DNA of 64,000 nt, taken from assembly GCA_964399485.1 (NCBI GenBank), contig CAYNQS010000006.1, positions 27,656 through 91,655 of the forward strand. Direction: 5' to 3'. Made by a program: the position numbers and the translations under genes. A model generated the notes under the pieces. The model was not told the DNA's origin. It searched no databases and saw only the letters and a program-made list of their open reading frames with translations. The first letter of the stretch is position 1. The number at the start of each line of letters is the position of its first letter. This DNA comes from an uncultured Candidatus Bathyarchaeia archaeon (GTDB lineage: Archaea > Thermoproteota > Bathyarchaeia > Bathyarchaeales > Bathyarchaeaceae). Shown one piece after another: positions 13,122 through 64,000 of the stretch.

Positions 13122-13239
13122 TGGTGCGGGGGACGGGATTCGAACCCGTGGAGGCCTGCGCCAGAGGATCTTAAGTCCTCCCCCTTCTCCTAGGGGATCT
13201 GTTTGACCCGCTACTTAGACCTGGCTCGGGTACCCCCGC
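13122..13239 (-). tRNA. tRNA-Leu(UAA), type II with long variable arm, encoded CCA, ~25-29-nt non-canonical intron between D-arm and anticodon stem
   Basis: Minus strand reads GCGGGGGTA...GAGGA-CTTAAGA-TCCTC-TGGCGCAGGCCTCC-ACGGG-TTCGAAT-CCCGT-CCCCCGC-A-CCA. Acceptor, anticodon and T arms pair perfectly. Extra sequence containing a CCCC-TAGGAGAA-GGGG hairpin lies 5' of the anticodon stem. Confidence 0.8.
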
Positions 13240-13366
13240 CACCAAATATTCACAACGCACCTTCGACATAAATGTTGCTTGATTAACGTGGTGGCGTGTG
13301 CTGTGTTTTGTGGCGTTACGGTTATAACAGTCAAAATGTAAAAGATGTTTTGGCGGGAAAAAATCT

Positions 13367-13512
13367 GGGCGGGTATAGAAAGCTTTGTCGGCTTTCTACC
13401 GAAGCCTAGCTTGGATAGGGCACGAACAGCAGAATATGCTGGTGTAAGCCTCCTATCAGGGAAACTGGGATAGAGCTCGGGGTCACGGGTTCAAGTCCCG
13501 TCCCGCCCGCCA
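13367..13512 (+). tRNA. tRNA-Arg(CCU) candidate interrupted by three introns (about 28, 22 and 18 nt), encoded CCA
   Basis: GGGCGGG...ACGGG-TTCAAGT-CCCGT-CCCGCCC-G-CCA spans 146 nt. Removing 13376-13403, 13426-13447 and 13456-13473 gives a 78-nt cloverleaf with anticodon stem CGAGC/GCTCG and loop CTCCTAA. Confidence 0.7.
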
Positions 13513-17507: not shown

Positions 17508-18092
17508 CTATTTTAGGTTAAGTTCTGAAAGAGAATAGTAAACGATTTCCCCTCTCCGGTTTATAACCGCAAGAACCAAGTTTTTCTTCAAGTTCTGAAC
17601 GTACCGCTGCGTTCTCGCCAGCTTTTCAACGGAAACGGGCTGCCCCTCCTGTATGCCAAATATGAGGTGCTTGGCTGTTCCTTTGCCGTAATCGCCTCGT
17701 TCGTAGACTCGGAAATCGATTCCCAACCCGAAGCCTTCTCGCGCCACGTAGCCGCGACCCCTCAGGTCCCGGTAAATGAGGTATCTGACCCAAGCGTTTT
17801 TGTCAACTTGCTGGAAACGTTTGAGCAAGTCCTGAAAAGCCATATTCTTTTTTGTTTCTTTATTTGTAACCGTTATTGCTCCTTTGCCTAACAGTAACAG
17901 GGCTTCATAGAGGGTGAGACGCAGCTTTCCGTCTTCATCTACGCCGTAGCCTTTAGACGAAAATTCTTCGATTCCCTCCGGTGAAGAGACGGTTACAACT
18001 GTTCCTTTCACGGAAGCCTTAACAGGCACCACAACAGCATCTTTGGGCTTCTCAGCCTCAACCTCCGATTTCTCCAACACCAAAACCTTCAA
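17508..18092 (-). CDS. endA: tRNA-splicing (intron) endonuclease, catalytic-type subunit
   Basis: 194 aa. YLIYRDLRGRGYVAREGFGLGIDFRVYERG...KHLIFG matches the EndA catalytic domain pattern (Y...H...K). Confidence 0.85.
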   Translation of the reverse strand: MKVLVLEKSEVEAEKPKDAVVVPVKASVKGTVVTVSSPEGIEEFSSKGYGVDEDGKLRLTLYEALLLLGKGAITVTNKETKKNMAFQDLLKRFQQVDKNAWVRYLIYRDLRGRGYVAREGFGLGIDFRVYERGDYGKGTAKHLIFGIQEGQPVSVEKLARTQRYVQNLKKNLVLAVINRRGEIVYYSLSELNLK

Positions 18093-47613: not shown

Positions 47614-48048
47614 TTATGCTGTGTCGTCGGTTACGAAGTTGTTTCCTCTGGCTGAAAGGAAGTTGAATTGATATTTGCATCCCGAAATCCAGCCAACATC
47701 GTTGAGCGTTACTGTTTGGCTTTCTCCAGCCCTAATGGTGACATCCAAATTGTCAACTAGTTGATCAACGTTGTTGCCAGTCACTTTTACTGCACGAATT
47801 GTGACAGCATAACTTCCAGGGTTCGCTATAGTTAATACTATTTGGTTGTCTGAAGCACCTGACGTTCCTTGATAGAAGATGTCGGAAACCCACAAAGCTT
47901 CTGTTTCCATAGAGTTAGCAGACAATATGGTGATCCAACCGCTTACTGCTAAGCCTAAAGCAACGGTAACAGACAGCAAAATCACGGAGGCAATTGCCAC
48001 GCTCATTCCTTTACTATCCAATTTTTTTTCTTTTTGTTTAGAGGGCAA
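47614..48048 (-). CDS. Archaeal type IV pilin-like protein (class III signal peptide)
   Basis: 144 aa. Basic N-terminus then KG|MSVAIASVILLSVTVALGLAV hydrophobic stretch, typical of prepilin peptidase substrates. Confidence 0.6.
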   Translation of the reverse strand: MPSKQKEKKLDSKGMSVAIASVILLSVTVALGLAVSGWITILSANSMETEALWVSDIFYQGTSGASDNQIVLTIANPGSYAVTIRAVKVTGNNVDQLVDNLDVTIRAGESQTVTLNDVGWISGCKYQFNFLSARGNNFVTDDTA

Positions 48049-48226
48049 GGTAATTACCTTCCATCATAAGACCGAATTCATATAATATATCGTGATATAT
48101 AATATATCATAAACCGATATAAAAAACTAATTGTGAATTTCACCCCTAGAGACCTCTACGCACGTCTCCACTTGCGAAGATAACTGTTATTTATTCCGTC
48201 ACTTGGTGACGGTTCTAAAATCCCTC

Positions 48227-48256
48227 TTTTTTAAGGTTAAATTTTAACCAAAAAAA
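48227..48256. repeat. PAL element copy 1 (A/T-flanked variant)
   Basis: TTTTTTAAGGTTAAATTTTAACCAAAAAAA. The core GGTTAAATTTTAACC (48235-48249) is a perfect dyad around a central T. Confidence 0.6.
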
Positions 48257-48386
48257 TGAGTGCGTGTGGAAGTGGACTGGATGAAAGTGTTGAGAACTGC
48301 TACACTCAGGAATGGCGTGTCCTGAATTTTGTGGGGTGTCCTGCTACGCAGTATCAAGTCTGAGGTCAGGAGTGGATACTTGGGCT

Positions 48387-48419
48387 GGTTGGGTTAAATT
48401 TTAGCCCCCAAACCCAAAC
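48387..48419. repeat. PAL element copy 2
   Basis: GGTTGGGTTAAATTTTAGCCCCCAAACCCAAAC. Lies 84 nt downstream of the stop of the 48503-49666 ORF. Confidence 0.85.
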
Positions 48420-48502
48420 TTTCCTTGTGTGCACAATTGCCACGTTGGTTTCATAAAGCGTCGTAGCAGAACTAGCCAAGAGTCCAACTTTTCAATTGGG
48501 GA

Positions 48503-49666
48503 TTAAGATTCTGACCTTTCTCGCTTAATTATTAACTCTCCCTTTAAATATTGTTGGTTATACATTTTCTTGATCCTTAGAATATTCTTGGCCCTCTCTT
48601 CAGTTTCTTTCTCATAGATTTCAATTTCCCCATCAAAAAGACCTAATATGGCTTGTACTTGATCCGGAGAATGCATAAGCGGATTAATCAGAGCAAGAAT
48701 GGTGAATCCTTTTGATTTCAACTCAGAAACAAGTCTTCTTACCCATTTTCTAGTTATTATAGAGCCATGCTGAAGTAAAACGTCCGAAATGATATCTATA
48801 CAAATACGCTTAGCTACACTAGACGTTGATTCCAGCCTTCGAAGGGATTTGGTCAACGCAATATCAATATTTGATAGATTATTAACTCCTTCTAGATTGA
48901 ATACATTGGGTAAGCTCGTATTAGATTTATTTGCACATGGATTGGAAAGAAAAAGATAAAAATTTCCAGGATGTTCTTCGGCTAAAGACCTCCCATTTTC
49001 TGAGTCTAGAGAAAGGTAAAACGTCACTTCGCCTACATTAATTCCTGCTCTCAAAAAATTCTTAATTAGAATTTCCCGTTCATCATTGGAAGGTGAAGTT
49101 ATTATAACGGCGTATCTTTCAGGTAAGCCTCCGAACAAAAAATTGTCTAAATCTTTGTATCCAGTTGAAATACGTTTTGGAGAAATAAATTCATTTTCGT
49201 ATCGAGCTAGGTTTACTTTAATTTGGTTTTTTTCAGAAGGTTCTTCATTTTCAGTAGGTGGGATAAAGGCTGATCCGAAAATGTTAGCTTTTTTAGAAGA
49301 AATTTTACCTACAAGCTTACTCTTTAACTGTTCTATCTCATTCTCAAAAATTTCCCTGTCTCCAGAAGTGGATTCTCTTCCTAAACTATCAATAAGATAA
49401 TCGAAATGAACAGTAATCAATCTATTAGAATACGATTGTGAATTTTCCAAAGGATTAAATGAAATCTTAAGATTAATATCATAATCTTTAAACTCGGTTG
49501 AAGAGTCGTTCTGAAGGCTCATCCGTTTTTTAAATATAAGGAGTCTAGGTTTAATCGAGTCTTTTTGAGCATACTTAAGATTTAAAAAAAAATCCCTCGA
49601 AATATTATATGCTCTTGTTACATGCATGCATGCAGAGTCAATTATAAAGGAGTCAGATATTTTCAC
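48503..49666 (-). CDS. KaiC/RecA-fold ATPase-like protein with degenerate Walker A and unknown N-terminal domain
   Basis: 387 aa. RISTGYKDLDNFLFGGLPERYAVIITSPSNDERE aligns with the KaiC-type TG(I)xxLDxxLGGGxxxGxxxLIxGxxGxGKT, but GxxGxGKT is replaced by SPSNDERE. Visibly AT-rich. Confidence 0.55.
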   Translation of the reverse strand: MKISDSFIIDSACMHVTRAYNISRDFFLNLKYAQKDSIKPRLLIFKKRMSLQNDSSTEFKDYDINLKISFNPLENSQSYSNRLITVHFDYLIDSLGRESTSGDREIFENEIEQLKSKLVGKISSKKANIFGSAFIPPTENEEPSEKNQIKVNLARYENEFISPKRISTGYKDLDNFLFGGLPERYAVIITSPSNDEREILIKNFLRAGINVGEVTFYLSLDSENGRSLAEEHPGNFYLFLSNPCANKSNTSLPNVFNLEGVNNLSNIDIALTKSLRRLESTSSVAKRICIDIISDVLLQHGSIITRKWVRRLVSELKSKGFTILALINPLMHSPDQVQAILGLFDGEIEIYEKETEERAKNILRIKKMYNQQYLKGELIIKRERSES

Positions 49667-49735
49667 TGGGAATCCAACATCCTAAATTTTTAGGAACAAT
49701 AGAATATAAAACTTGTTAGAATTAGATGATTCTTT

Positions 49736-49861
49736 GTGTGCGAGTGCGCGTTTTTTTCTTTGTGGGTGAGAGAGCGGGCGAGCAAGCGGGTGGTCGGTAA
49801 AGCACACACGTACGCGTACGTACACGGATACACGTATACACGCATCCGTGTGAACACGCAT
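49736..49861 (+). repeat. PAL-associated upstream module (copy 1) with alternating purine-pyrimidine tracts
   Basis: Shares the ordered blocks GAGAGAGC, GGT..AAA.GCAC, CACA.TACG..GTACG and ACG...GGGTTTGGG with 62627-62716. Perfect R/Y alternation at 49802-49826 (25 nt) and 49828-49845 (18 nt). Confidence 0.7.
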
Positions 49862-49890
49862 GGGTTTGGGGGTTAAATTTTAGCCCCAAA
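49862..49890. repeat. PAL element copy 3
   Basis: GGGTTTGGGGGTTAAATTTTAGCCCCAAA, between the divergent starts at 49666 (-) and 50037 (+). Confidence 0.9.
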
Positions 49891-50036
49891 TTCACACCCT
49901 TATATATGACAAGCGTATTATGTTAACAAGTAGAATTCTCTTAGTGAATGTTGACAAAAAGCCTATTGCGTTTTGTCGCTTATTTCGGGTATTCTATTAG
50001 AAAAAATATGTAAAAAGAAGGAGGGGGAGTTAGAAT

Positions 50037-50237
50037 ATGTCTATGTCTGGAATTCAATATAAAATGGAGCAAAAGCTTATTCGAAAATTTATGCAAGCAG
50101 GAGCCACTTCTAAGGAGAAAGCTGTAACATTGGAAGAGGCTAGACTTGATATGGAAGAGTATTGTTGGTTAGACTATTTTGCTGGAACTTTTCTTGGCAG
50201 CATAAAGAAGACTAGAGACCATCGATATTACCTCTAG
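50037..50237 (+). CDS. Small hypothetical protein
   Basis: 66-aa ORF preceded by a strong SD-like AAGGAGGGGGAG. No family recognised. Confidence 0.4.
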   Translation: MSMSGIQYKMEQKLIRKFMQAGATSKEKAVTLEEARLDMEEYCWLDYFAGTFLGSIKKTRDHRYYL

Positions 50238-50637
50238 GAGTGCACACATTATACAAAATATTTCAGGGCTTTTGCCGTTTAAGATAGGAAACCGTAAATA
50301 ACATTCCAGTTTCTAGGCGAATATTCTGCACACCTACTAATTCCCACCCTTACTCCCCTAACGTGTTTAATTCTTTTTGGACTTTTTCTATTGTTGGATT
50401 TTTCTCTCTATCATGTCTGCTTAAATGAACCTTTGTCTTAAGTGGAAGCACTTTGTATTCCCATTTTACCAAATTAGAGTAACATCCCCAAACACTAGTA
50501 ATGTTCAATGAAACAGTAAATATCTTTGCTTACTAAATATTTCTCTTTGTGAATGTTTTCAACTATCGCTTATGCTTTCCATTTTAATGTTCTAAATTGC
50601 AGAAGAGTGAAAAGTGAACTTGATAAAACATTGGCGA

Positions 50638-50668
50638 GGCGGGGTTAAATTTTAACCCCAACCCAACC
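50638..50668. repeat. PAL element copy 4
   Basis: GGCGGGGTTAAATTTTAACCCCAACCCAACC. The core 50641-50659 is a perfect 9+1+9 dyad. Flanked by direct repeats GAAGAGTGAAAAGTG (50602-50616) and GAAGAGTGAAAGTG (50685-50698). Confidence 0.9.
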
Positions 50669-50742
50669 ACTGATAGTTGACGCTGAAGAGTGAAAGTGGA
50701 GAATGGCGTCAGCGGCTTACCAACGAAGAGAGGTAAGAAGAC

Positions 50743-51021
50743 TCAAACTTCTGCAGATTTTAGCAATTTTTTCGATAACCCAAGCTCTTTAAATGTTTTG
50801 GTGGTCAATTGTCTAATTCTCTTTTTTAAAGCTTCATTCTCAGGATGAGGATAATATTCTACCTTCTCATTATCTATTAAAATTGCAACTGCAGTAGATT
50901 CACAGTTTCTACACATCCAAAAGCTGGTTCTGTAAGTAATCTCAGAAACCCATTCCATCATTTTGCCACAGTTTTTACATTTCAATAATCTCAGTACCTT
51001 CTCTAATTCTCTATAATCCAT
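50743..51021 (-). CDS. Small Zn-ribbon protein
   Basis: 92 aa. CKNCG...CRNCES Cys pairs. Confidence 0.45.
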   Translation of the reverse strand: MDYRELEKVLRLLKCKNCGKMMEWVSEITYRTSFWMCRNCESTAVAILIDNEKVEYYPHPENEALKKRIRQLTTKTFKELGLSKKLLKSAEV

Positions 51022-51096
51022 TTTCTTTGCCTCACTATGCGCGCACGCAACTATCCATATTTGGTCTTTTCTTAATAATGTTTTATAACGGTTATC

Positions 51097-51121
51097 TTCG
51101 TCGTCGTTCGTCGTCGTTTCG
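51097..51121. repeat. Short tandem repeat (TTCGTCGTCGT x2)
   Basis: TTCGTCGTCGTTCGTCGTCGTTTCG, 9 nt to the left of PAL copy 5. Confidence 0.6.
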
Positions 51122-51127
51122 TTTTTT

Positions 51128-51156
51128 CGTGGGGTTAAATTTTAACCTCAAGCCAA
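51128..51156. repeat. PAL element copy 5
   Basis: CGTGGGGTTAAATTTTAACCTCAAGCCAA, between the start of 50743-51021 (-) and the stop of 51243-51539 (-). Confidence 0.85.
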
Positions 51157-51242
51157 TTTTTTCATTTGAAGGTAGTGTAGGACCTGTGTTCGGGGCATAA
51201 ATACGAAATATAATGGATTGTTAAGACTCTTCAAAAAGTATC

Positions 51243-51539
51243 CTAGGTAGTTTCTAGGGCAGAAAATCCGGTAAGCAGAATTTTGTTTGAGCAATTGTTG
51301 CATCGAATCAATAGACTCTCTAATATATTGTTTCTGACTTTTGGCTCTAAAATAGAGTAAACATCTTCTGTTTCATCGTTAGGCGAAATCTTTGCCCCAC
51401 AGCAAGGACATAAAAAATCACCCTTCCCTTCTAGATCTATTAAACTAATTTTATGCACCAATACCTGCTTCACTTTTCGATCCCCTAGATATGCACCGCT
51501 AATGCCTTCGATAATTAACAAAAAAAGGTTTTTTGTCAA
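51243..51539 (-). CDS. Small Zn-ribbon protein
   Basis: 98 aa. CPCCG...CNNCS Cys pairs. Confidence 0.45.
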   Translation of the reverse strand: MTKNLFLLIIEGISGAYLGDRKVKQVLVHKISLIDLEGKGDFLCPCCGAKISPNDETEDVYSILEPKVRNNILESLLIRCNNCSNKILLTGFSALETT

Positions 51540-51561
51540 GAAAGTTTGACCAAAACTATCG

Positions 51562-51593
51562 TTTGGCTAGTCAAGAAAAATTGACTAAGCAAA
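51562..51593. promoter_or_regulatory. Imperfect inverted repeat (candidate operator) upstream of the 98-aa Zn-ribbon gene
   Basis: TTTGGCTAGTCAA-gaaaaa-TTGACTAAGCAAA (11 of 13 positions complementary), 23-54 nt upstream of the start at 51539. Confidence 0.3.
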
Positions 51594-51755
51594 ATAACAT
51601 TAACAAAATCGAATTTTGGTTAGTTAAATAATTATTTAGCTTTCTTACTGTGGGGGAAAGAAGGGCAGTTTCCTTGTCTTCTGCTCTAGGTTTATTACTT
51701 GCTGGACAAACATAAACTGTTATTTACTTGCTAGGTCAGTATGAAATGAGGGAGT

Positions 51756-52352
51756 TTGGTGAGCAAGGTTATTGTTCCTCCTACATCGGTTGTCCACAAA
51801 ACGGCGGTCATCGGAGAGGGAACACGCGTCTGGAACTTTGTACACGTTAGAGAAAACGCTGAAATAGGCAAGCAATGTGTCCTCGCCGACTACGTTTATG
51901 TGGGCAAAGGAGCAAAAATCGGAAACAACGTAAAGCTTGAGAACCGAGCAACAGTCTATCAGGGAGTAACAATCCAAGACAAAGTTTTTGTTGGTCCTCA
52001 CGTCACCTTCACAAACGACCCTTATCCAAGAAGCTTCAGCACAGACTGGAAAATCCTGCAGACACTCGTGAAAGATGGAGTCTCAATCGGCGCTGGAACA
52101 GTAATACGTTGCGGCGTCACCATAGGAGAATACGCTTTGATAGGCGCAGGCAGCGTAGTAACAGAGGACATACCGCCCCACGCTTTAGCTTACGGAAACC
52201 CAGCTAGAATCAGAGGATTCGTTTGCAGATGCAGCAGAAAACTTGAGACCGAAGAAAAAAGGGAAACCTGCGTTCTGATGAAGTGCCAGTTCTGTAACAA
52301 AGAATACAAGATAGCAGCGGAAGATTATGCCAGACAAAAAAAGGGGGAGTGA
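51756..52352 (+). CDS. Left-handed beta-helix (hexapeptide) sugar N-acetyltransferase, WbpD/WlbB-like, with C-terminal Cys motif
   Basis: 198 aa. Repeated hexapeptide pattern (IGEGTRVWNFVHV, IGKQCVLADYVYV, IGNNVKLENRATV). C-terminal CRCS...CQFC. Confidence 0.8.
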   Translation: MVSKVIVPPTSVVHKTAVIGEGTRVWNFVHVRENAEIGKQCVLADYVYVGKGAKIGNNVKLENRATVYQGVTIQDKVFVGPHVTFTNDPYPRSFSTDWKILQTLVKDGVSIGAGTVIRCGVTIGEYALIGAGSVVTEDIPPHALAYGNPARIRGFVCRCSRKLETEEKRETCVLMKCQFCNKEYKIAAEDYARQKKGE

Positions 52353-53668: not shown

Positions 53669-54391
53669 TTAGGTCCCAACTCGATTAACGGTTTCGCTTA
53701 ACCATCCCGCCAGAAACTCCACATTGGTTCTGGTCAGATATGTTAGTGTGGTTAAACTTGTGTTAGTTAATGCAGCGTAAGGAATGAAAAGTATCTTAGA
53801 GATAAATCTTCTGAGAATCTGGTACAGGGAATAGTGACCGTAACGATTGTAAGACATTCCTAATTGGAAATGGTTTATTGGGGTACCCAAATGGACTGTT
53901 CCAATGCTGGGTATAATTTTCCAAACGTAACCAGAATCTTCAACATGCTTTTTGAGCAAGTGGTCTTCACCGAAAAAAAGTGGTGGAGGATTATGGTTTA
54001 TCAGCAGTTGTCGTTTAATCAGAACATTGTTGATGAATGGGTTCGTGTCAACTTTGTGGAGTCCAACCAAGGTTTTAACAGCCTTCTCATAAGCTGCTAT
54101 GTGCCTGTTATTTTGGACAGCTACTGTAGCTATTGCCCCAACATTAGGTTCAATATGAGAAAGGACCGTAGGTAACCAATCTTTGGGAATAGAGACATCA
54201 TCGTCAAACATTGCAACATATTCTGTAGATGCCTTCAAGCCTCCATCGACTCTAGCCTTTGAAAGAGGTTTACTATCGATTAGGAAGACTTGACCTATAT
54301 TCTCTTGAGCCTTTATTGACTCGATCAGTTTAGGTGAAACTGTTTTAGGGTCAAGAGTTAGGACAATAGCATCAACCTTCATCTTATTCAC
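53669..54391 (-). CDS. GT2-like glycosyltransferase
   Basis: 240 aa. VDAIVLTLD N-terminus and YVAMFDDDV (DxD) motif. Confidence 0.55.
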   Translation of the reverse strand: MNKMKVDAIVLTLDPKTVSPKLIESIKAQENIGQVFLIDSKPLSKARVDGGLKASTEYVAMFDDDVSIPKDWLPTVLSHIEPNVGAIATVAVQNNRHIAAYEKAVKTLVGLHKVDTNPFINNVLIKRQLLINHNPPPLFFGEDHLLKKHVEDSGYVWKIIPSIGTVHLGTPINHFQLGMSYNRYGHYSLYQILRRFISKILFIPYAALTNTSLTTLTYLTRTNVEFLAGWLSETVNRVGT

Positions 54392-54862
54392 CTTAATGTT
54401 GTTTCATGGCGATGTAATGTTTTTCTTCCACTTTACCTGTTTCTGGCATTCTGCATATGTTTCTACTACACTAGTAAATTTATCTCCAAGTATAATATTG
54501 CTCCGCTTGGTAGGGAAAAGTATGCCACAACAAAACAGTCTAAAGATTCGCTTCGTTTTCCAGCCGCAGAATTATCTTAAGGAGTCGTTCGTTAGCGACA
54601 GGTTTCACTCTTTTTGTTTTGCATAGATCACCCGTCTCCCAAAGTCTGGAACTTCAGAAGTTAAGCCTCTCTGTTACACGAGGTTCAATCTTCAAGAATT
54701 TACATGATTTTCCTATATTAACGATGCTTTTGACAAATAAATCTGAACAAAAAACAATGTAAAATCATATTTAATCCTTGACAAATGCATAATAAATGGC
54801 TAAAAAGTTGAAAGAAAAACAATTAATAGTCTGAGTGTGTTTATAAGCAGGTTGACCTAACA

Positions 54863-55663
54863 ATGAAAAAACTGATATTGGGTCTAGATGGAATGGATTT
54901 TGATATTGCTCTAGATCTAAATCTAACGAACATTCTTCAGATTCAGTTCGGAAGAATTGAAGTTCCTATAAATGAGGTGTTGGGGCAACCTACTTCTCCA
55001 GAAGTGTGGGCTTCTTTTCTTTGTGGAGAACATGTAAAAAAGATGTTCAAGGGTAGAAAGAGAGAGCGGTTGATGAAGTATCTCGTAAAATTGAAAAGAA
55101 TGTTTCCATTCATATCTATGGGGATTGGCAGAAAAATCTGCGGTCAAATAGTTAGTTTTCCAACATTGGATAGGAAAACTTGGGTAGATCTTCCAAATGT
55201 GAAAGAATTCAATTCGCCGTATTACAGTTACACAAACGAGGTTTTTGAATACACCCAGCAGTTTGGCAAAGACAAAGACTTGGACGCGTATAAAAAGAAT
55301 ATTTTAGACCTTTATGAAAGGGATTCTAAAAGAATTATTTCAGAAGTGAATTTGGAAGTGACGCATCCAAGCTGCGACATTCTCTTCTGTTATCTTCATT
55401 TTCCTGACATGTTCAATCATCTCTGGTTCCAAGAGGTGGATGCGCTCTATTCACATTACCGAAAAATGGATGCTTTCGTTAAAGGAATTCTGGATTCGGT
55501 GGGCGATACACACGTGATAATCGTATCGGATCACGGTTTCGATATGTCAAAAGGAGATCACAGCGATTTTGGCTTCATAAGCAGTAACAAGTTCATGAAT
55601 TTTCCAAAAGATATTATGGGCTTAGGTAAGTTGATGTATGAATATGCGGATGTCAACAAATGA
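54863..55663 (+). CDS. Alkaline-phosphatase-superfamily (type I phosphodiesterase/nucleotide pyrophosphatase-like) protein
   Basis: 266 aa. LILGLDGMDFD N-terminus and IIVSDHGFDMSKGDH metal-site-like motif. Confidence 0.5.
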   Translation: MKKLILGLDGMDFDIALDLNLTNILQIQFGRIEVPINEVLGQPTSPEVWASFLCGEHVKKMFKGRKRERLMKYLVKLKRMFPFISMGIGRKICGQIVSFPTLDRKTWVDLPNVKEFNSPYYSYTNEVFEYTQQFGKDKDLDAYKKNILDLYERDSKRIISEVNLEVTHPSCDILFCYLHFPDMFNHLWFQEVDALYSHYRKMDAFVKGILDSVGDTHVIIVSDHGFDMSKGDHSDFGFISSNKFMNFPKDIMGLGKLMYEYADVNK

Positions 55664-56460
55664 ATACTGAAGAATTGGTTTCGAAATCGGTTTACATGCT
55701 GCGAGAAGCAAAAGCGCACTTCAAAAATCCAGTGCTGCTTTGGTCAACGGGGAAGGATTCTACTTTATCTCTAAGTTTGTGTAGGGAAGCATTTGATGGA
55801 AAGGTCCCGTTCCCAGTTCTGTACATCGACACTGGGTTGCAATTTGAGCAAATGTATAACTTCAGAGACAAGATCGCGAAGGATTGGAATCTGGACCTAA
55901 TAGTAGAAAAAAGTGACAAGGCAGGAAAAATTAGTCCCTCGCAAGAAACTCCTAATCAAGTATGTTGTCAAACTTTGAAAACAGATACTGTGAGAGATAC
56001 TATTGAACAGCATGGGTTCGATGCGATGATTATATCAATCTGTAGGGATAAACAGCCAATTGGAAATACAGAAAGAATTTGGAAGCAAAAAAAGAAAACG
56101 GGTACACCATCTGAGAGCCTTCAGGTTGATCCTGTATTTAATCTTCAGACAGATTTTGGTGCCGATTCTAGTTGCACACGTATCAATCCGATTCTGCATT
56201 GGGATGAAATCGCCATTTGGGAGTATACCCAAAAAATGGAGATACCTGTCAACCCGATATATTTTGCCAAAGACGGAGTCAGATATCGATCTCTTGGCTG
56301 TCACCCTTGCACTAACCCTATCGAATCTTCTGCAAAGAACATCGCCGAGATTATTGAAGAACTAAAGGTCGCTAAAGGTCCAGAAAAGTCTGGAAAATCA
56401 CAGGAAGCTAAAGACAAAGAAGAAATTATGAAGAAGCTCAAGGCTATGGGGTATATGTGA
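55660..56460 (+). CDS. cysD: Sulfate adenylyltransferase subunit 2-like (CysD / PAPS-reductase fold)
   Basis: 266 aa. NPVLLWSTGKDSTLSL PP-loop, VPFPVLYIDTG, RYRSLGCHPCT, C-terminal ...KLKAMGYM. 4-nt overlap with the upstream gene. Confidence 0.7.
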   Translation: MNTEELVSKSVYMLREAKAHFKNPVLLWSTGKDSTLSLSLCREAFDGKVPFPVLYIDTGLQFEQMYNFRDKIAKDWNLDLIVEKSDKAGKISPSQETPNQVCCQTLKTDTVRDTIEQHGFDAMIISICRDKQPIGNTERIWKQKKKTGTPSESLQVDPVFNLQTDFGADSSCTRINPILHWDEIAIWEYTQKMEIPVNPIYFAKDGVRYRSLGCHPCTNPIESSAKNIAEIIEELKVAKGPEKSGKSQEAKDKEEIMKKLKAMGYM

Positions 56461-61796: not shown

Positions 61797-62579
61797 ATTC
61801 CTGAGCCTTCTCTAAAAACTCGGAAAGTAGTTTATGAAAGATGGAGAGGTAAATGCGCTTTCTGTGGTATTGACCTACCCTTCGAACAACACCATATTAT
61901 CGCCAAAAATGACTCCCCAGAGTTGATTGATGACCCTGATAATTTGATTTTGTTATGTGCAAATCATCATGGTTTGACACTTAAGAAAAAACCAGATGAA
62001 CGCCCAGCAATTGCAATTGAAGATATTGACGACCTGCAAAAATCTGGTTTTGCCAAAGCAGAAAAAAGAGGTTTTTATTTTTCCATTCCTCAAAATTTTT
62101 CGCTTTCTTTAGGTAGTAATCTTTGCATAGGATGTCCCTATATTCTTATTGTTAATGATAAACCGTTGATTGAGATGTGGCCTCAGAGGACTGCCTTTTA
62201 TGTTGAAGAACCCAAGGTTTACCTTTACATGCGATTCTTTGATGACGAGAATAATTTTATAGGAGGAATGTTTGCGAATCATTGGGCTTCCGTTGTTAAT
62301 GAGGAATGGAAGTTGGATATTCTGGAAAATGAAATCATTGCTAGACACGTAAAGAGACCGATTTTCGTCAAATTTGAGCGCGATAAAAACTTGGTTCGAA
62401 TAACAGGACGGTTCTATTTTGATGGAATAGAAATAACTGCCAAATATGATAGCCTTCTACTAATGACAAATGTGTTCTCAGGAAATATGGCAAGAAATTG
62501 CGAAGTAGCTTTTATTGTGAAAGGAAATCGTGAATCAGCCTCATTAGGATTCTGTGGTCGATTATCTACGAAATTTTAA
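61797..62579 (+). CDS. HNH endonuclease-domain protein with ~200-aa uncharacterised C-terminal domain
   Basis: The frame is open from 61791. Upstream of the ORF-track start it encodes ...WRGKCAFCGIDLPFEQHHIIAKNDSPELIDDPDNLILLCANHHG (C-x2-C...HH...N...H HNH motif). The only plausible initiator behind SD-like GAGGTGA (61784-61790) is an in-frame ATT at 61797. The start is uncertain. Confidence 0.6.
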   Translation: MPEPSLKTRKVVYERWRGKCAFCGIDLPFEQHHIIAKNDSPELIDDPDNLILLCANHHGLTLKKKPDERPAIAIEDIDDLQKSGFAKAEKRGFYFSIPQNFSLSLGSNLCIGCPYILIVNDKPLIEMWPQRTAFYVEEPKVYLYMRFFDDENNFIGGMFANHWASVVNEEWKLDILENEIIARHVKRPIFVKFERDKNLVRITGRFYFDGIEITAKYDSLLLMTNVFSGNMARNCEVAFIVKGNRESASLGFCGRLSTKF

Positions 62580-62626
62580 TGCTCTAATTTTGAACTATGT
62601 GTTTTCTATAATTTGTGTTTTTTCTA

Positions 62627-62716
62627 CATGTGTATTGGGGAGAGAGCAGGTGGGAGCGCGGTGTAAACGCACGGGCACACATACGTACGTGTACGGGCGT
62701 ATGGACACGAGTACGT
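62627..62716 (+). repeat. PAL-associated upstream module (copy 2) with alternating purine-pyrimidine tract
   Basis: Homologous to 49761-49861 (blocks GAGAGAGC, GGTGTAAACGCAC, CACACATACGTACGTGTACGG, ACG..GGGTTTGGG). Perfect R/Y alternation at 62675-62695 (21 nt). Confidence 0.7.
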
Positions 62717-62738
62717 GGGTTTGGGTTTAATTTTAATC
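62717..62738. repeat. PAL element copy 7 (degenerate right arm)
   Basis: GGGTTTGGGTTTAATTTTAATC, between the convergent 3' ends of the HNH gene and the Shedu-like gene. Confidence 0.75.
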
Positions 62739-62788
62739 TCTCTGGCATCGCTCAATACTAAGAATTAAAGCCGTAAATCTCAAGCAAC

Positions 62789-63892
62789 TTATTTTTGCTT
62801 TGAAATAGCATCCAAATATTCTTGATACCGTGATTTGCATTGATTTACTACAGAAAAATAAGACTTGAATTCAATTGAGGGAATCAAGTTGATTGCCTTC
62901 TTTAGATGGGGAGTAATGTTCTTTGCTATTAGGAATCCCTGTTTTTCATCATATTCCGCAAATTCATCAACAAGAACCAAGTAATCCATTAGTTGAGTTA
63001 TGTGTTCCTGTTTAACTTGCATTGAAGGCCTTTTAATCTCAACTACGACCAGTCTTTTTTCGAAATCAGCACAAATAAAGTCAGGACGTCTTTTCCTATA
63101 TTTTTTCCTGTATTCTTTTCCAAGAAAATTTGAAAGTGTTTTGTTAGAACGGAGAAGCCAATACTTATCGTCAAGAATCCAAAGCGCACCTGCAAGTTGG
63201 TTATGTACAGAGTTTTTCCCTTTAATCTCATAGGCATTTTCATTTTGAATGGATGCATCAAAAATTGTTAACTTCCGTAATCTACTGCCAATAATGCTTG
63301 CAACAGAAGTAATTTCCGGCAGAGTGTATTGCTGCATTAGTTGGTGTAGTTTTTTCATTCCTTCAGGCGATTTTTCTTTTCCTAGCTCATTAATCAGTTC
63401 TTTCAAAGTGTTAGCCATTATGTCTTGTTTACCCAATAGAGACCTAAAAGCTGTCTCTACAAAATCGCTAAGAACATCAAAATCTTCAATTTCGACTTCG
63501 CCACGATAAACTTGGTCAAAAGCTTTCAAAATGCTGATTGCCGCTTTAGGGTATTGTTCAACAATCTTCTTTACTTGTGGGTCAATTGCTTCTTCTTTTC
63601 TCAATTGTTTTTCTAAAGCTTTTAGAAGAGGTGGTAATTTTTCCCATTTCAGTTTATTTGCTAAGTAATCTAACACTGGTTTGACTTTTGCTAGTTCCTC
63701 AGGGGTTTTTATTCTAACGGATTGATAATAAAATGGGCTTTGACGGGGTCCAGTAGGGCCTCTAGTCAACCTGTATAATTGTAAAGCTCCTCTGGGATTA
63801 AAAATATCCTTATAAGCTCTCATGTAAAATTTCTGTTTGATGATTGTTTGTCTATCGATTATAGTTTTTTGAGTTGCACCTTGATTTGACAT
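62789..63892 (-). CDS. Shedu-like protein: variable N-terminal region plus C-terminal PD-(D/E)xK nuclease (DUF4263-type)
   Basis: 367 aa. C-terminal ...HNQLAGALWILDDKYWLL...RRPDFICADFEKRLVVVEIKRPSMQV...QLMDY fits the D...(E/V)xK restriction-endonuclease-fold core and the DUF4263 pattern as I recall it. AT-rich. Confidence 0.5.
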   Translation of the reverse strand: MSNQGATQKTIIDRQTIIKQKFYMRAYKDIFNPRGALQLYRLTRGPTGPRQSPFYYQSVRIKTPEELAKVKPVLDYLANKLKWEKLPPLLKALEKQLRKEEAIDPQVKKIVEQYPKAAISILKAFDQVYRGEVEIEDFDVLSDFVETAFRSLLGKQDIMANTLKELINELGKEKSPEGMKKLHQLMQQYTLPEITSVASIIGSRLRKLTIFDASIQNENAYEIKGKNSVHNQLAGALWILDDKYWLLRSNKTLSNFLGKEYRKKYRKRRPDFICADFEKRLVVVEIKRPSMQVKQEHITQLMDYLVLVDEFAEYDEKQGFLIAKNITPHLKKAINLIPSIEFKSYFSVVNQCKSRYQEYLDAISKQK

Positions 63893-63944
63893 AAATAATA
63901 GAATTGTCCGATATACTATATTTGATTTCGTATGAAATTAATTT

Positions 63945-63968
63945 GGGTTTGGGGTTAAAATTTGACCC
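63945..63968. repeat. PAL element copy 8
   Basis: GGGTTTGGGGTTAAAATTTGACCC, 53 nt upstream of the Shedu-like gene start. Confidence 0.85.
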
Positions 63969-64000
63969 TTTCCGTCACTGAACAAATTTTCATTCTTATT

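Follow-up and report, generated by a model that had tools for sequence, protein, structure and literature searches.

The 64,000-nt stretch of archaeal DNA analyzed here (contig CAYNQS010000006.1; its whole length is called the window) raises the question whether a 146-nt locus on the forward strand at positions 13367–13512, which standard transfer RNA (tRNA) finders overlook, encodes a functional tRNA and, if so, which one. A sequence-only reading had proposed that three introns must be removed from this locus to give tRNA-Arg(CCU). The comparative and structural analyses reported here indicate that the locus is very probably a functional tRNA-Arg(CCU) gene, belonging to an archaeon of Bathyarchaeota type and interrupted by three short introns at tRNA positions 9/10, 29/30, and 37/38.

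ARAGORN in default mode returned no tRNA call across the 64 kb window, and neither did Rfam at the gathering score. When Rfam was run with a permissive E-value, only the T arm of the Arg gene was recovered, as a tmRNA-like fragment at 13484–13501, and a neighbouring Leu gene appeared as a weak tRNA-Sec match. A custom scan of the 64 kb window for a T arm combined with a 7-bp acceptor stem yielded two candidates only, namely the Arg gene and its divergent neighbour at 13239–13122. The Arg gene was divided into exons and introns as follows.

13367–13512, forward strand: complete tRNA-Arg(CCU) gene, 146 nt including the encoded CCA (13510–13512); ARAGORN in intron mode gives exactly these ends.
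13367–13375, forward strand: exon 1, tRNA positions 1–9, GGGCGGGTA; invariant in all parsed orthologues, yet also the anchor used for parsing them.
13376–13403, forward strand: intron 1, 28 nt, site 9/10, holding a hairpin of 7–8 bp.
13404–13425, forward strand: exon 2, positions 10–29, spanning the D arm (including A20) and position 26 as well as 3 nt at the start of the anticodon stem.
13426–13447, forward strand: intron 2, 22 nt, site 29/30, with a strict bulge-helix-bulge (BHB) motif of the hBHBh′ type.
13448–13455, forward strand: exon 3, positions 30–37, comprising GC of the anticodon stem plus CUCCUA; the anticodon CCU lies at 13452–13454.
13456–13473, forward strand: intron 3, 18 nt, canonical site 37/38.
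13474–13512, forward strand: exon 4, positions 38–76, comprising the 3′ anticodon stem, variable loop, T arm, 3′ acceptor strand, G73, and CCA.

The two acceptor strands, GGGCGGG (13367–13373) and CCCGCCC (13502–13508), frame the gene together with a T arm of ACGGG-TTCAAGT-CCCGT and the discriminator G73, and the introns add up to 28 + 22 + 18 = 68 nt beyond what a tRNA needs. Hairpins are formed by TAGAAAGC/GCTTTCTA within 13376–13403 and by CAGCA/TGCTG within 13426–13447. Deletion of the three introns left 78 nt, which fold into a standard cloverleaf with an anticodon stem of CGAGC/GCTCG and a 7-nt loop of CTCCTAA and are called tRNA-Arg(cct) by ARAGORN. All sequence statements of the sequence-only reading were confirmed by direct inspection. 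The spliced product furthermore has the D loop AGCUUGGAUA with A20, as well as C35 and G73; A20, C35, and G or A at position 73 are typical arginine identity elements.

A species-representative genome collection was queried with the exact 25 nt from the 3′ end of the gene. A single genome matched, a metagenome-assembled genome (MAG) titled Candidatus Bathyarchaeota archaeon (locus L001), which is syntenic with the window and has the same divergent tRNA-Leu neighbour. Its four exons are 100% identical to those of the window, whereas nearby coding DNA is only 68% identical; all three inserts are present at the window's sites, diverged in sequence and length. Metagenome contigs were queried with a slightly degenerate 24-nt pattern, which returned at least 120 stretches. 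The parsed set, consisting of L001–L121 and the window, contains at least 99 tRNA-Arg(CCU) genes, 83 of them distinct. The counts given here and below refer to the matches listed; they are skewed by the search pattern and are to be read as lower bounds, not as frequencies.

All three introns are present in 53 genes (51 distinct), none in 21, intron 1 only in 13, introns 1 and 2 in six, introns 1 and 3 in three, and intron 2 only in three; intron 1 is present in 75 of the parsed orthologues and absent from 24. Throughout this series from zero to three introns, every insertion in the at least 99 genes begins and ends at the three junctions that the sequence-only reading had proposed. The natural intron-free orthologues are 78 nt long and correspond to the predicted mature sequence. 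The closest one listed is identical to the predicted product at 73 of 75 positions and shows no insertion or deletion, the differences being one base of the D loop and position 49; the exon boundaries proposed are confirmed by these intron-free copies. When the 51 distinct genes with three introns were aligned, conservation was 96% for exon columns not covered by the search pattern as compared to 63% for intron columns. Exon 3 was invariant in this alignment, and column identity of exon 2 was 93.5%.

Some loci depart from the general pattern. At L108, which is outside the 51-gene alignment, exon 3 reads GCCCCCTA instead of GCCTCCTA, so that the otherwise universal U33 is changed to C; this may be a sequencing error or a variant. 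The Arg gene of L044, which is additional to those tallied above, carries a single 30-nt insert, ACCAGTAGGCTCATAGCCTACAGGCGTGTT, at 30/31. This insert is unrelated to the introns described above and lies one position off the usual intron-2 site, which suggests an independent insertion near the same spot. Furthermore, comparison of L012/L018/L064 with L008/L067/L101 and of L100/L036 with L040/L059 revealed flanks of about 85% identity with intron 1 precisely present or absent and the GGGCGG tract of the leader kept. Such pairs would be consistent with recent loss or gain of intron 1.

Splice motifs were examined by applying the archaeal rule that two 3-nt bulges are separated by a 4-bp helix H and that cleavage takes place after the second nucleotide of each bulge. 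With the BHB motif predicted at each junction, intron 2 proved to be strict, introns 1 and 3 carry one mismatch each, and the junctions of all three agree with a strict or relaxed hBHBh′ motif. For intron 2, helix h is formed by A21 G22 G23 with C31 C32 U33, H by G24 C25 A26 C27 with GUGU, and h′ by CAGCA/UGCUG (5 bp). This is the top-scoring motif of the precursor in a crude scoring of the single sequence, which did not single out introns 1 and 3. In each of the 57 distinct listed genes having intron 2, its motif is perfect, with an H of 4/4 and an h of 3 bp. Its h′ shows compensatory swaps between AU and GC pairs.

The exon-side helix of intron 1 pairs G1–G3 with C11–U13 (3 bp, or 5 bp with the leader). 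In its H, C4 pairs with G, G5 with C, and G6 with C, and G7 lies opposite A (the 3′ end of the intron being ACCG), so that three of four positions are paired; the G7·A mismatch is invariant in 70 of 70 distinct listed genes. All four bases occur at the first position of the intron (T 48, A 11, C 6, G 5), in keeping with its placement in a bulge. Helix h′ comprises 8 bp in the window; its length is 4–10 bp in all but one of the 70 distinct genes, and changes on both sides are seen in six of the eight pairs of this hairpin. Taken jointly, motifs 1 and 2 are paired in 93.7% of cells, with 10 pairs changed on both sides, and all five covariation measures were above those of 500 out of 500 shuffles. 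When the partner was slid by 1–3 columns as a control, pairing was 35–49%. The motif of intron 3 consists of an H of C32–C35 with GGAU, in which C32·U is mismatched (3/4), a 5-bp h, and a 3-bp h′ of CAG/CUG. A perfect H of CUCC/GGAG (4/4) was found in 35 of 54 listed relatives, and the mismatch caused by GGAU in the window is common to one other locus. Across these genes H is 92% paired; conservation of the intron-side helix is weak, with few signs of covariation.

These results bear directly on the possibility that the locus is a decaying tRNA pseudogene, in which three insertions have accumulated and functional tRNA is no longer made. Both the failure of default ARAGORN and of Rfam at the gathering score to see the gene and the mismatches in two of the three window motifs could be explained in this way. 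We nevertheless regard a pseudogene as very unlikely. The difference between exon and intron columns reveals strong purifying selection on the exons, which have stayed fully identical to those of L001 while coding DNA nearby has diverged; the intron helices keep their pairing by compensatory changes; and the three-intron form occurs in at least 51 distinct sequences from many samples. Additionally, a promoter-like upstream block and the encoded CCA are conserved, and splice-site geometry of this kind would not persist in pseudogenes.

A real tRNA with a different exon-intron structure or identity was considered as well. ARAGORN in intron mode called tRNA-Asp(atc) with a single 55-nt intron (32,55) over 13367–13512, a candidate that is ruled out by the comparative data. 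The refuting case named in the sequence-only reading, an alternative placement with a different anticodon and better motifs, was examined by enumerating all products that arise when relaxed BHB-like segments are taken out in as many as three consecutive rounds; 26,883 products of 70–95 nt were obtained. Some ARAGORN call was obtained for 477 of these, with about 40 different anticodons. With so many products and anticodons passing, a yes/no call by ARAGORN fails to discriminate, and a ranking by minimum free energy is uninformative too, as it favours long products that resemble unspliced RNA. The splice products can be told apart only by how similar they are to natural intron-free genes. When ranked in this way, the CCU product came first of the 477, the runners-up being variants of it by 1–2 nt, and no alternative with another anticodon came as near to the natural intron-free genes. 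Moreover, the anticodon "ATC" relies on the opening nucleotide of intron 3, where A stands in 42 of 54 listed relatives, and orthologues with intron 1 only, intron 2 only, introns 1 and 2, or introns 1 and 3 bound each insertion independently. Another identity, such as tRNA-Asp(AUC), is thus very improbable.

What ambiguity is left within the CCU product is a 1-nt slide of an "A" at intron 1 (8/9 versus 9/10) and at intron 2 (28/29 versus 29/30), which the predicted BHB register settles as 9/10 and 29/30. This register can be trusted since it also holds for intron 3, whose junctions cannot slide and follow the second nucleotide of either bulge. The possibility that the locus is intergenic DNA resembling a cloverleaf by chance, for which the failure of the default tRNA finders is the sole point, can practically be dismissed given the 7-bp acceptor, the perfect T arm, the encoded CCA, and about 100 listed loci conserved in synteny with tRNA-Leu, and is refuted by the comparative data. 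Judged by sequence comparison, the tRNA structure at 13367–13512 is far beyond chance, because its product matches natural intron-free genes at 73 of 75 positions and the scan for T arm and acceptor yields only the Arg gene and its neighbour.

For a functional tRNA-Arg(CCU) gene with three introns, we propose the following splicing route. In the primary transcript, each intron folds with flanking exon sequence into a BHB motif, as sequence and covariation show. The endonuclease EndA encoded 4 kb away would cut after the second nucleotide of each bulge, i.e., at six sites, and an RNA ligase, which is RtcB in other archaea, would join the exons. The alternative pairings of the motifs would be in competition both with the cloverleaf and among themselves: motif 1 would take G1–G7 of the 5′ acceptor strand and C11–U13 of one D-stem strand, motif 2 would take A21–C27 of the other D-stem strand and C31–U33, and motif 3 would require C32–C35 together with an anticodon stem that is split by intron 2. 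Because of their overlap in nucleotides, motifs 2 and 3 exclude each other; hence, the precursor would have to refold between cuts. According to RNAfold, a fold constrained to contain motif 2 lies 3.1 kcal/mol above the unconstrained energy minimum, and one constrained to contain motif 1 lies 12.5 kcal/mol above it for a transcript beginning at G1. Splicing and end maturation would finally leave the 78-nt cloverleaf with the anticodon CCU.

The high cost of motif 1 refers to a transcript without a leader. Upstream of the gene, two features were recognized.

13322–13327, forward strand: probable TATA box (TTATAA, −45 to −40) within the conserved block GCGTTAnGGTTATAACA; a promoter role is suggested by its position.
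13351–13366, forward strand: predicted 5′ leader; TGGCGGG (13351–13357) is complementary to the 3′ end CCCGCCA, and the conserved CU at −2/−1 (13365–13366) pairs with A14 G15.

The block GCGTTAnGGTTATAACA is conserved upstream of nearly all intron-containing listed orthologues. Since TTATAA is spaced as an archaeal TATA box, transcription is predicted to start at about 13352, which falls at the conserved (T)GGCGGG tract at 13351–13357. Among the listed loci, GGCGG occurs at most 26 nt upstream in 70 of 70 distinct genes with intron 1 as compared to 4 of 21 genes without it, and in these four the upstream region is nearly identical to that of relatives having intron 1. If the leader is counted in, the helix on the exon side of motif 1 reaches 5–7 bp in all intron-1 genes versus 2–5 bp in genes lacking the intron. 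When a 20-nt leader was added to the window sequence, the minimum-energy fold paired the leader with the 3′ end, and the cost of motif 1 dropped from 12.5 to 2.7 kcal/mol. For 71 genes, the mean cost of motif 1 was 12.2 kcal/mol without leader, 4.8 kcal/mol with the native leader, and 6.3 kcal/mol with positions −20 to −5 shuffled; the native leader performed better than the shuffled one in 59 of the 71 genes.

Within the proposed route, the leader thus seems to favour the fold needed for intron 1: its end would lengthen the exon-side helix of motif 1, and its GGCGGG tract can bind the 3′ acceptor strand, so that intron 1 would be removed before trimming by RNase P. It is conceivable, though rather doubtful, that the conserved leader is in fact a dedicated helper of the 9/10 intron and has co-evolved with intron 1. 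GGCGGG, with which the predicted transcript begins, would then sequester the CCA end along with the acceptor strand and keep the precursor competent for cleavage. Nothing specific was found in the literature searched on leader-assisted formation of BHB motifs.

The sequence-only reading had also pointed to a second intron-containing tRNA next to the Arg gene and to endA about 4 kb away, and both were located.

13122–13239, reverse strand: tRNA-Leu(UAA) with a predicted 30-nt intron (13185–13214) at site 22/23; the Rfam match obtained by E-value spans 13126–13239.
17508–18092, reverse strand: endA, catalytic-type subunit of the tRNA-splicing endonuclease, 194 amino acids as listed, about 4.0 kb from the Arg gene.

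Removal of the 30 nt from the Leu gene gave an 88-nt class II tRNA called tRNA-Leu(taa) by ARAGORN. The 22/23 intron model was derived by pairing the strands manually, by comparing the D arm with that usual in class II tRNAs, and by applying ARAGORN to the product. The motif of this intron is clearly relaxed, with an H of 3/4 and without an exon-side helix. Candidates of a strict BHB scan in this gene were spurious, as they remove the anticodon, and no intron-free Leu orthologue that would confirm the junctions was present among the listed loci. At least 25 loci have conserved this divergent arrangement of the Leu and Arg genes. At L043, L092, L044, and L059, the Leu gene contains a second, canonical 37/38 intron; beside these two-intron Leu genes, the Arg gene is intron-free (L043, L092), has intron 1 only (L059), or carries the different insert (L044). 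Intron load therefore varies independently between the neighbours.

EndA has the Pfam domains tRNA_int_endo and tRNA_int_endo_N (PF01974, 1.8e-21; PF02778, 1e-09), and its gene adjoins that of histidyl-tRNA synthetase. The best solved relatives are 5X89 and the Methanocaldococcus jannaschii enzyme 1A79, with which the catalytic Tyr/His/Lys triad is aligned. EndA is most similar to the α4-type enzyme of M. jannaschii, being colinear with its subunit, and to the enzyme of M. kandleri; near the C terminus, it has NRRGE where M. jannaschii has an acidic DADGD. A phmmer search against all open reading frames of the 64 kb window did not reveal a paralogue or second subunit. α4 enzymes are described as strict for canonical motifs, and (αβ)2 or ε2 enzymes as lenient (PMC4090602; PMC4033280). 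A possibility linked to the leader is that the α4-like EndA handles introns lying at non-canonical sites in this lineage because leader-type helpers keep the motifs near-strict. As for the wider surroundings, G+C content is lower (0.36–0.38) at 48001–52000, 54001–56000, and 62001–64000 than in the rest of the window (about 0.46).

Several points weigh against the interpretation put forward here. Two of the three motifs of the window are imperfect, with G7·A at intron 1 and C32·U at intron 3, and an EndA that appears to be α4-like sits beside relaxed motifs although the α4 type is described as strict. The computed effect of the native leader is real but modest, as it exceeds that of a G-rich leader in shuffled order by a small margin, and the co-occurrence of GGCGG and intron 1 is phylogenetically non-independent. 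The orthologue counts are biased by the search pattern. Finally, for the Arg gene, expression, splicing, and the order in which these events take place are deduced from sequence data.

As a three-intron tRNA-Arg(CCU) gene, the locus can be compared with known systems. That archaeal tRNA genes may contain as many as three BHB introns is established, the Thermoproteales being the most prominent case; multiple introns are also found in other Crenarchaeota, Thaumarchaeota, Korarchaeum, Nanoarchaeum, ARMAN, and a few Euryarchaeota (PMC4033280; PMC8450103), which accords with the statement of the sequence-only reading that triple-intron tRNAs come from few archaeal lineages. Multi-intron genes of Thermoproteales were described for Pyrobaculum, Thermofilum, and Caldivirga (Sugahara et al. 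2007, 2008; summarised in PMC4033280 and PMC8450103). Their precursors need alternative folds, and one intron is sometimes removed before another motif forms (PMC8450103). The Arg gene resembles those of the Thermoproteales in having no more than three short introns at 37/38 and at non-canonical sites, with BHB or relaxed motifs and removal, here predicted, by EndA and a ligase. It differs in its host, which is of Bathyarchaeota type as judged by MAG title, synteny, and similarity, and in a local EndA that is nearer to the α4 type than to the crenarchaeal catalytic subunits. In the Thermoproteales, similar introns across tRNAs are the signature of transposition, whereas the four introns in the two tRNA genes of the window are, as compared by eye only, without obvious similarity.

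In the Thaumarchaeota, which belong to the same broad TACK group, many non-canonical BHB introns likewise occur, and clade-specific models are needed to detect them (PMC8450103). In a natural Caldiarchaeum subterraneum population, related genomes are reported to differ, too, by precise presence or absence of a tRNA intron at a given site; the series described here differs in that zero to three introns are found in one isoacceptor and across genomes with about 85% identical flanks rather than within one population (PMC3293823). No description of tRNA introns in Bathyarchaeota or the miscellaneous crenarchaeotal group (MCG) was found in the literature searched. Since every defining feature that can be tested by sequence is present, the Arg gene is a good, not an unprecedented, example of multi-intron archaeal tRNAs. 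New are the lineage, the clean series from zero to three introns in one isoacceptor, and the association between leader and intron.

The gene extends three-intron tRNAs to Bathyarchaeota-type archaea. Because default ARAGORN and Rfam are blind to it, an AGG-decoding tRNA would be counted as missing in annotation and completeness checks of a widespread sediment lineage. The association of the leader with intron 1 leads to a testable idea on the order of precursor processing, and the series from zero to three introns within a single isoacceptor provides a clean natural data set on the gain and loss of tRNA introns and on the upkeep of splice motifs.

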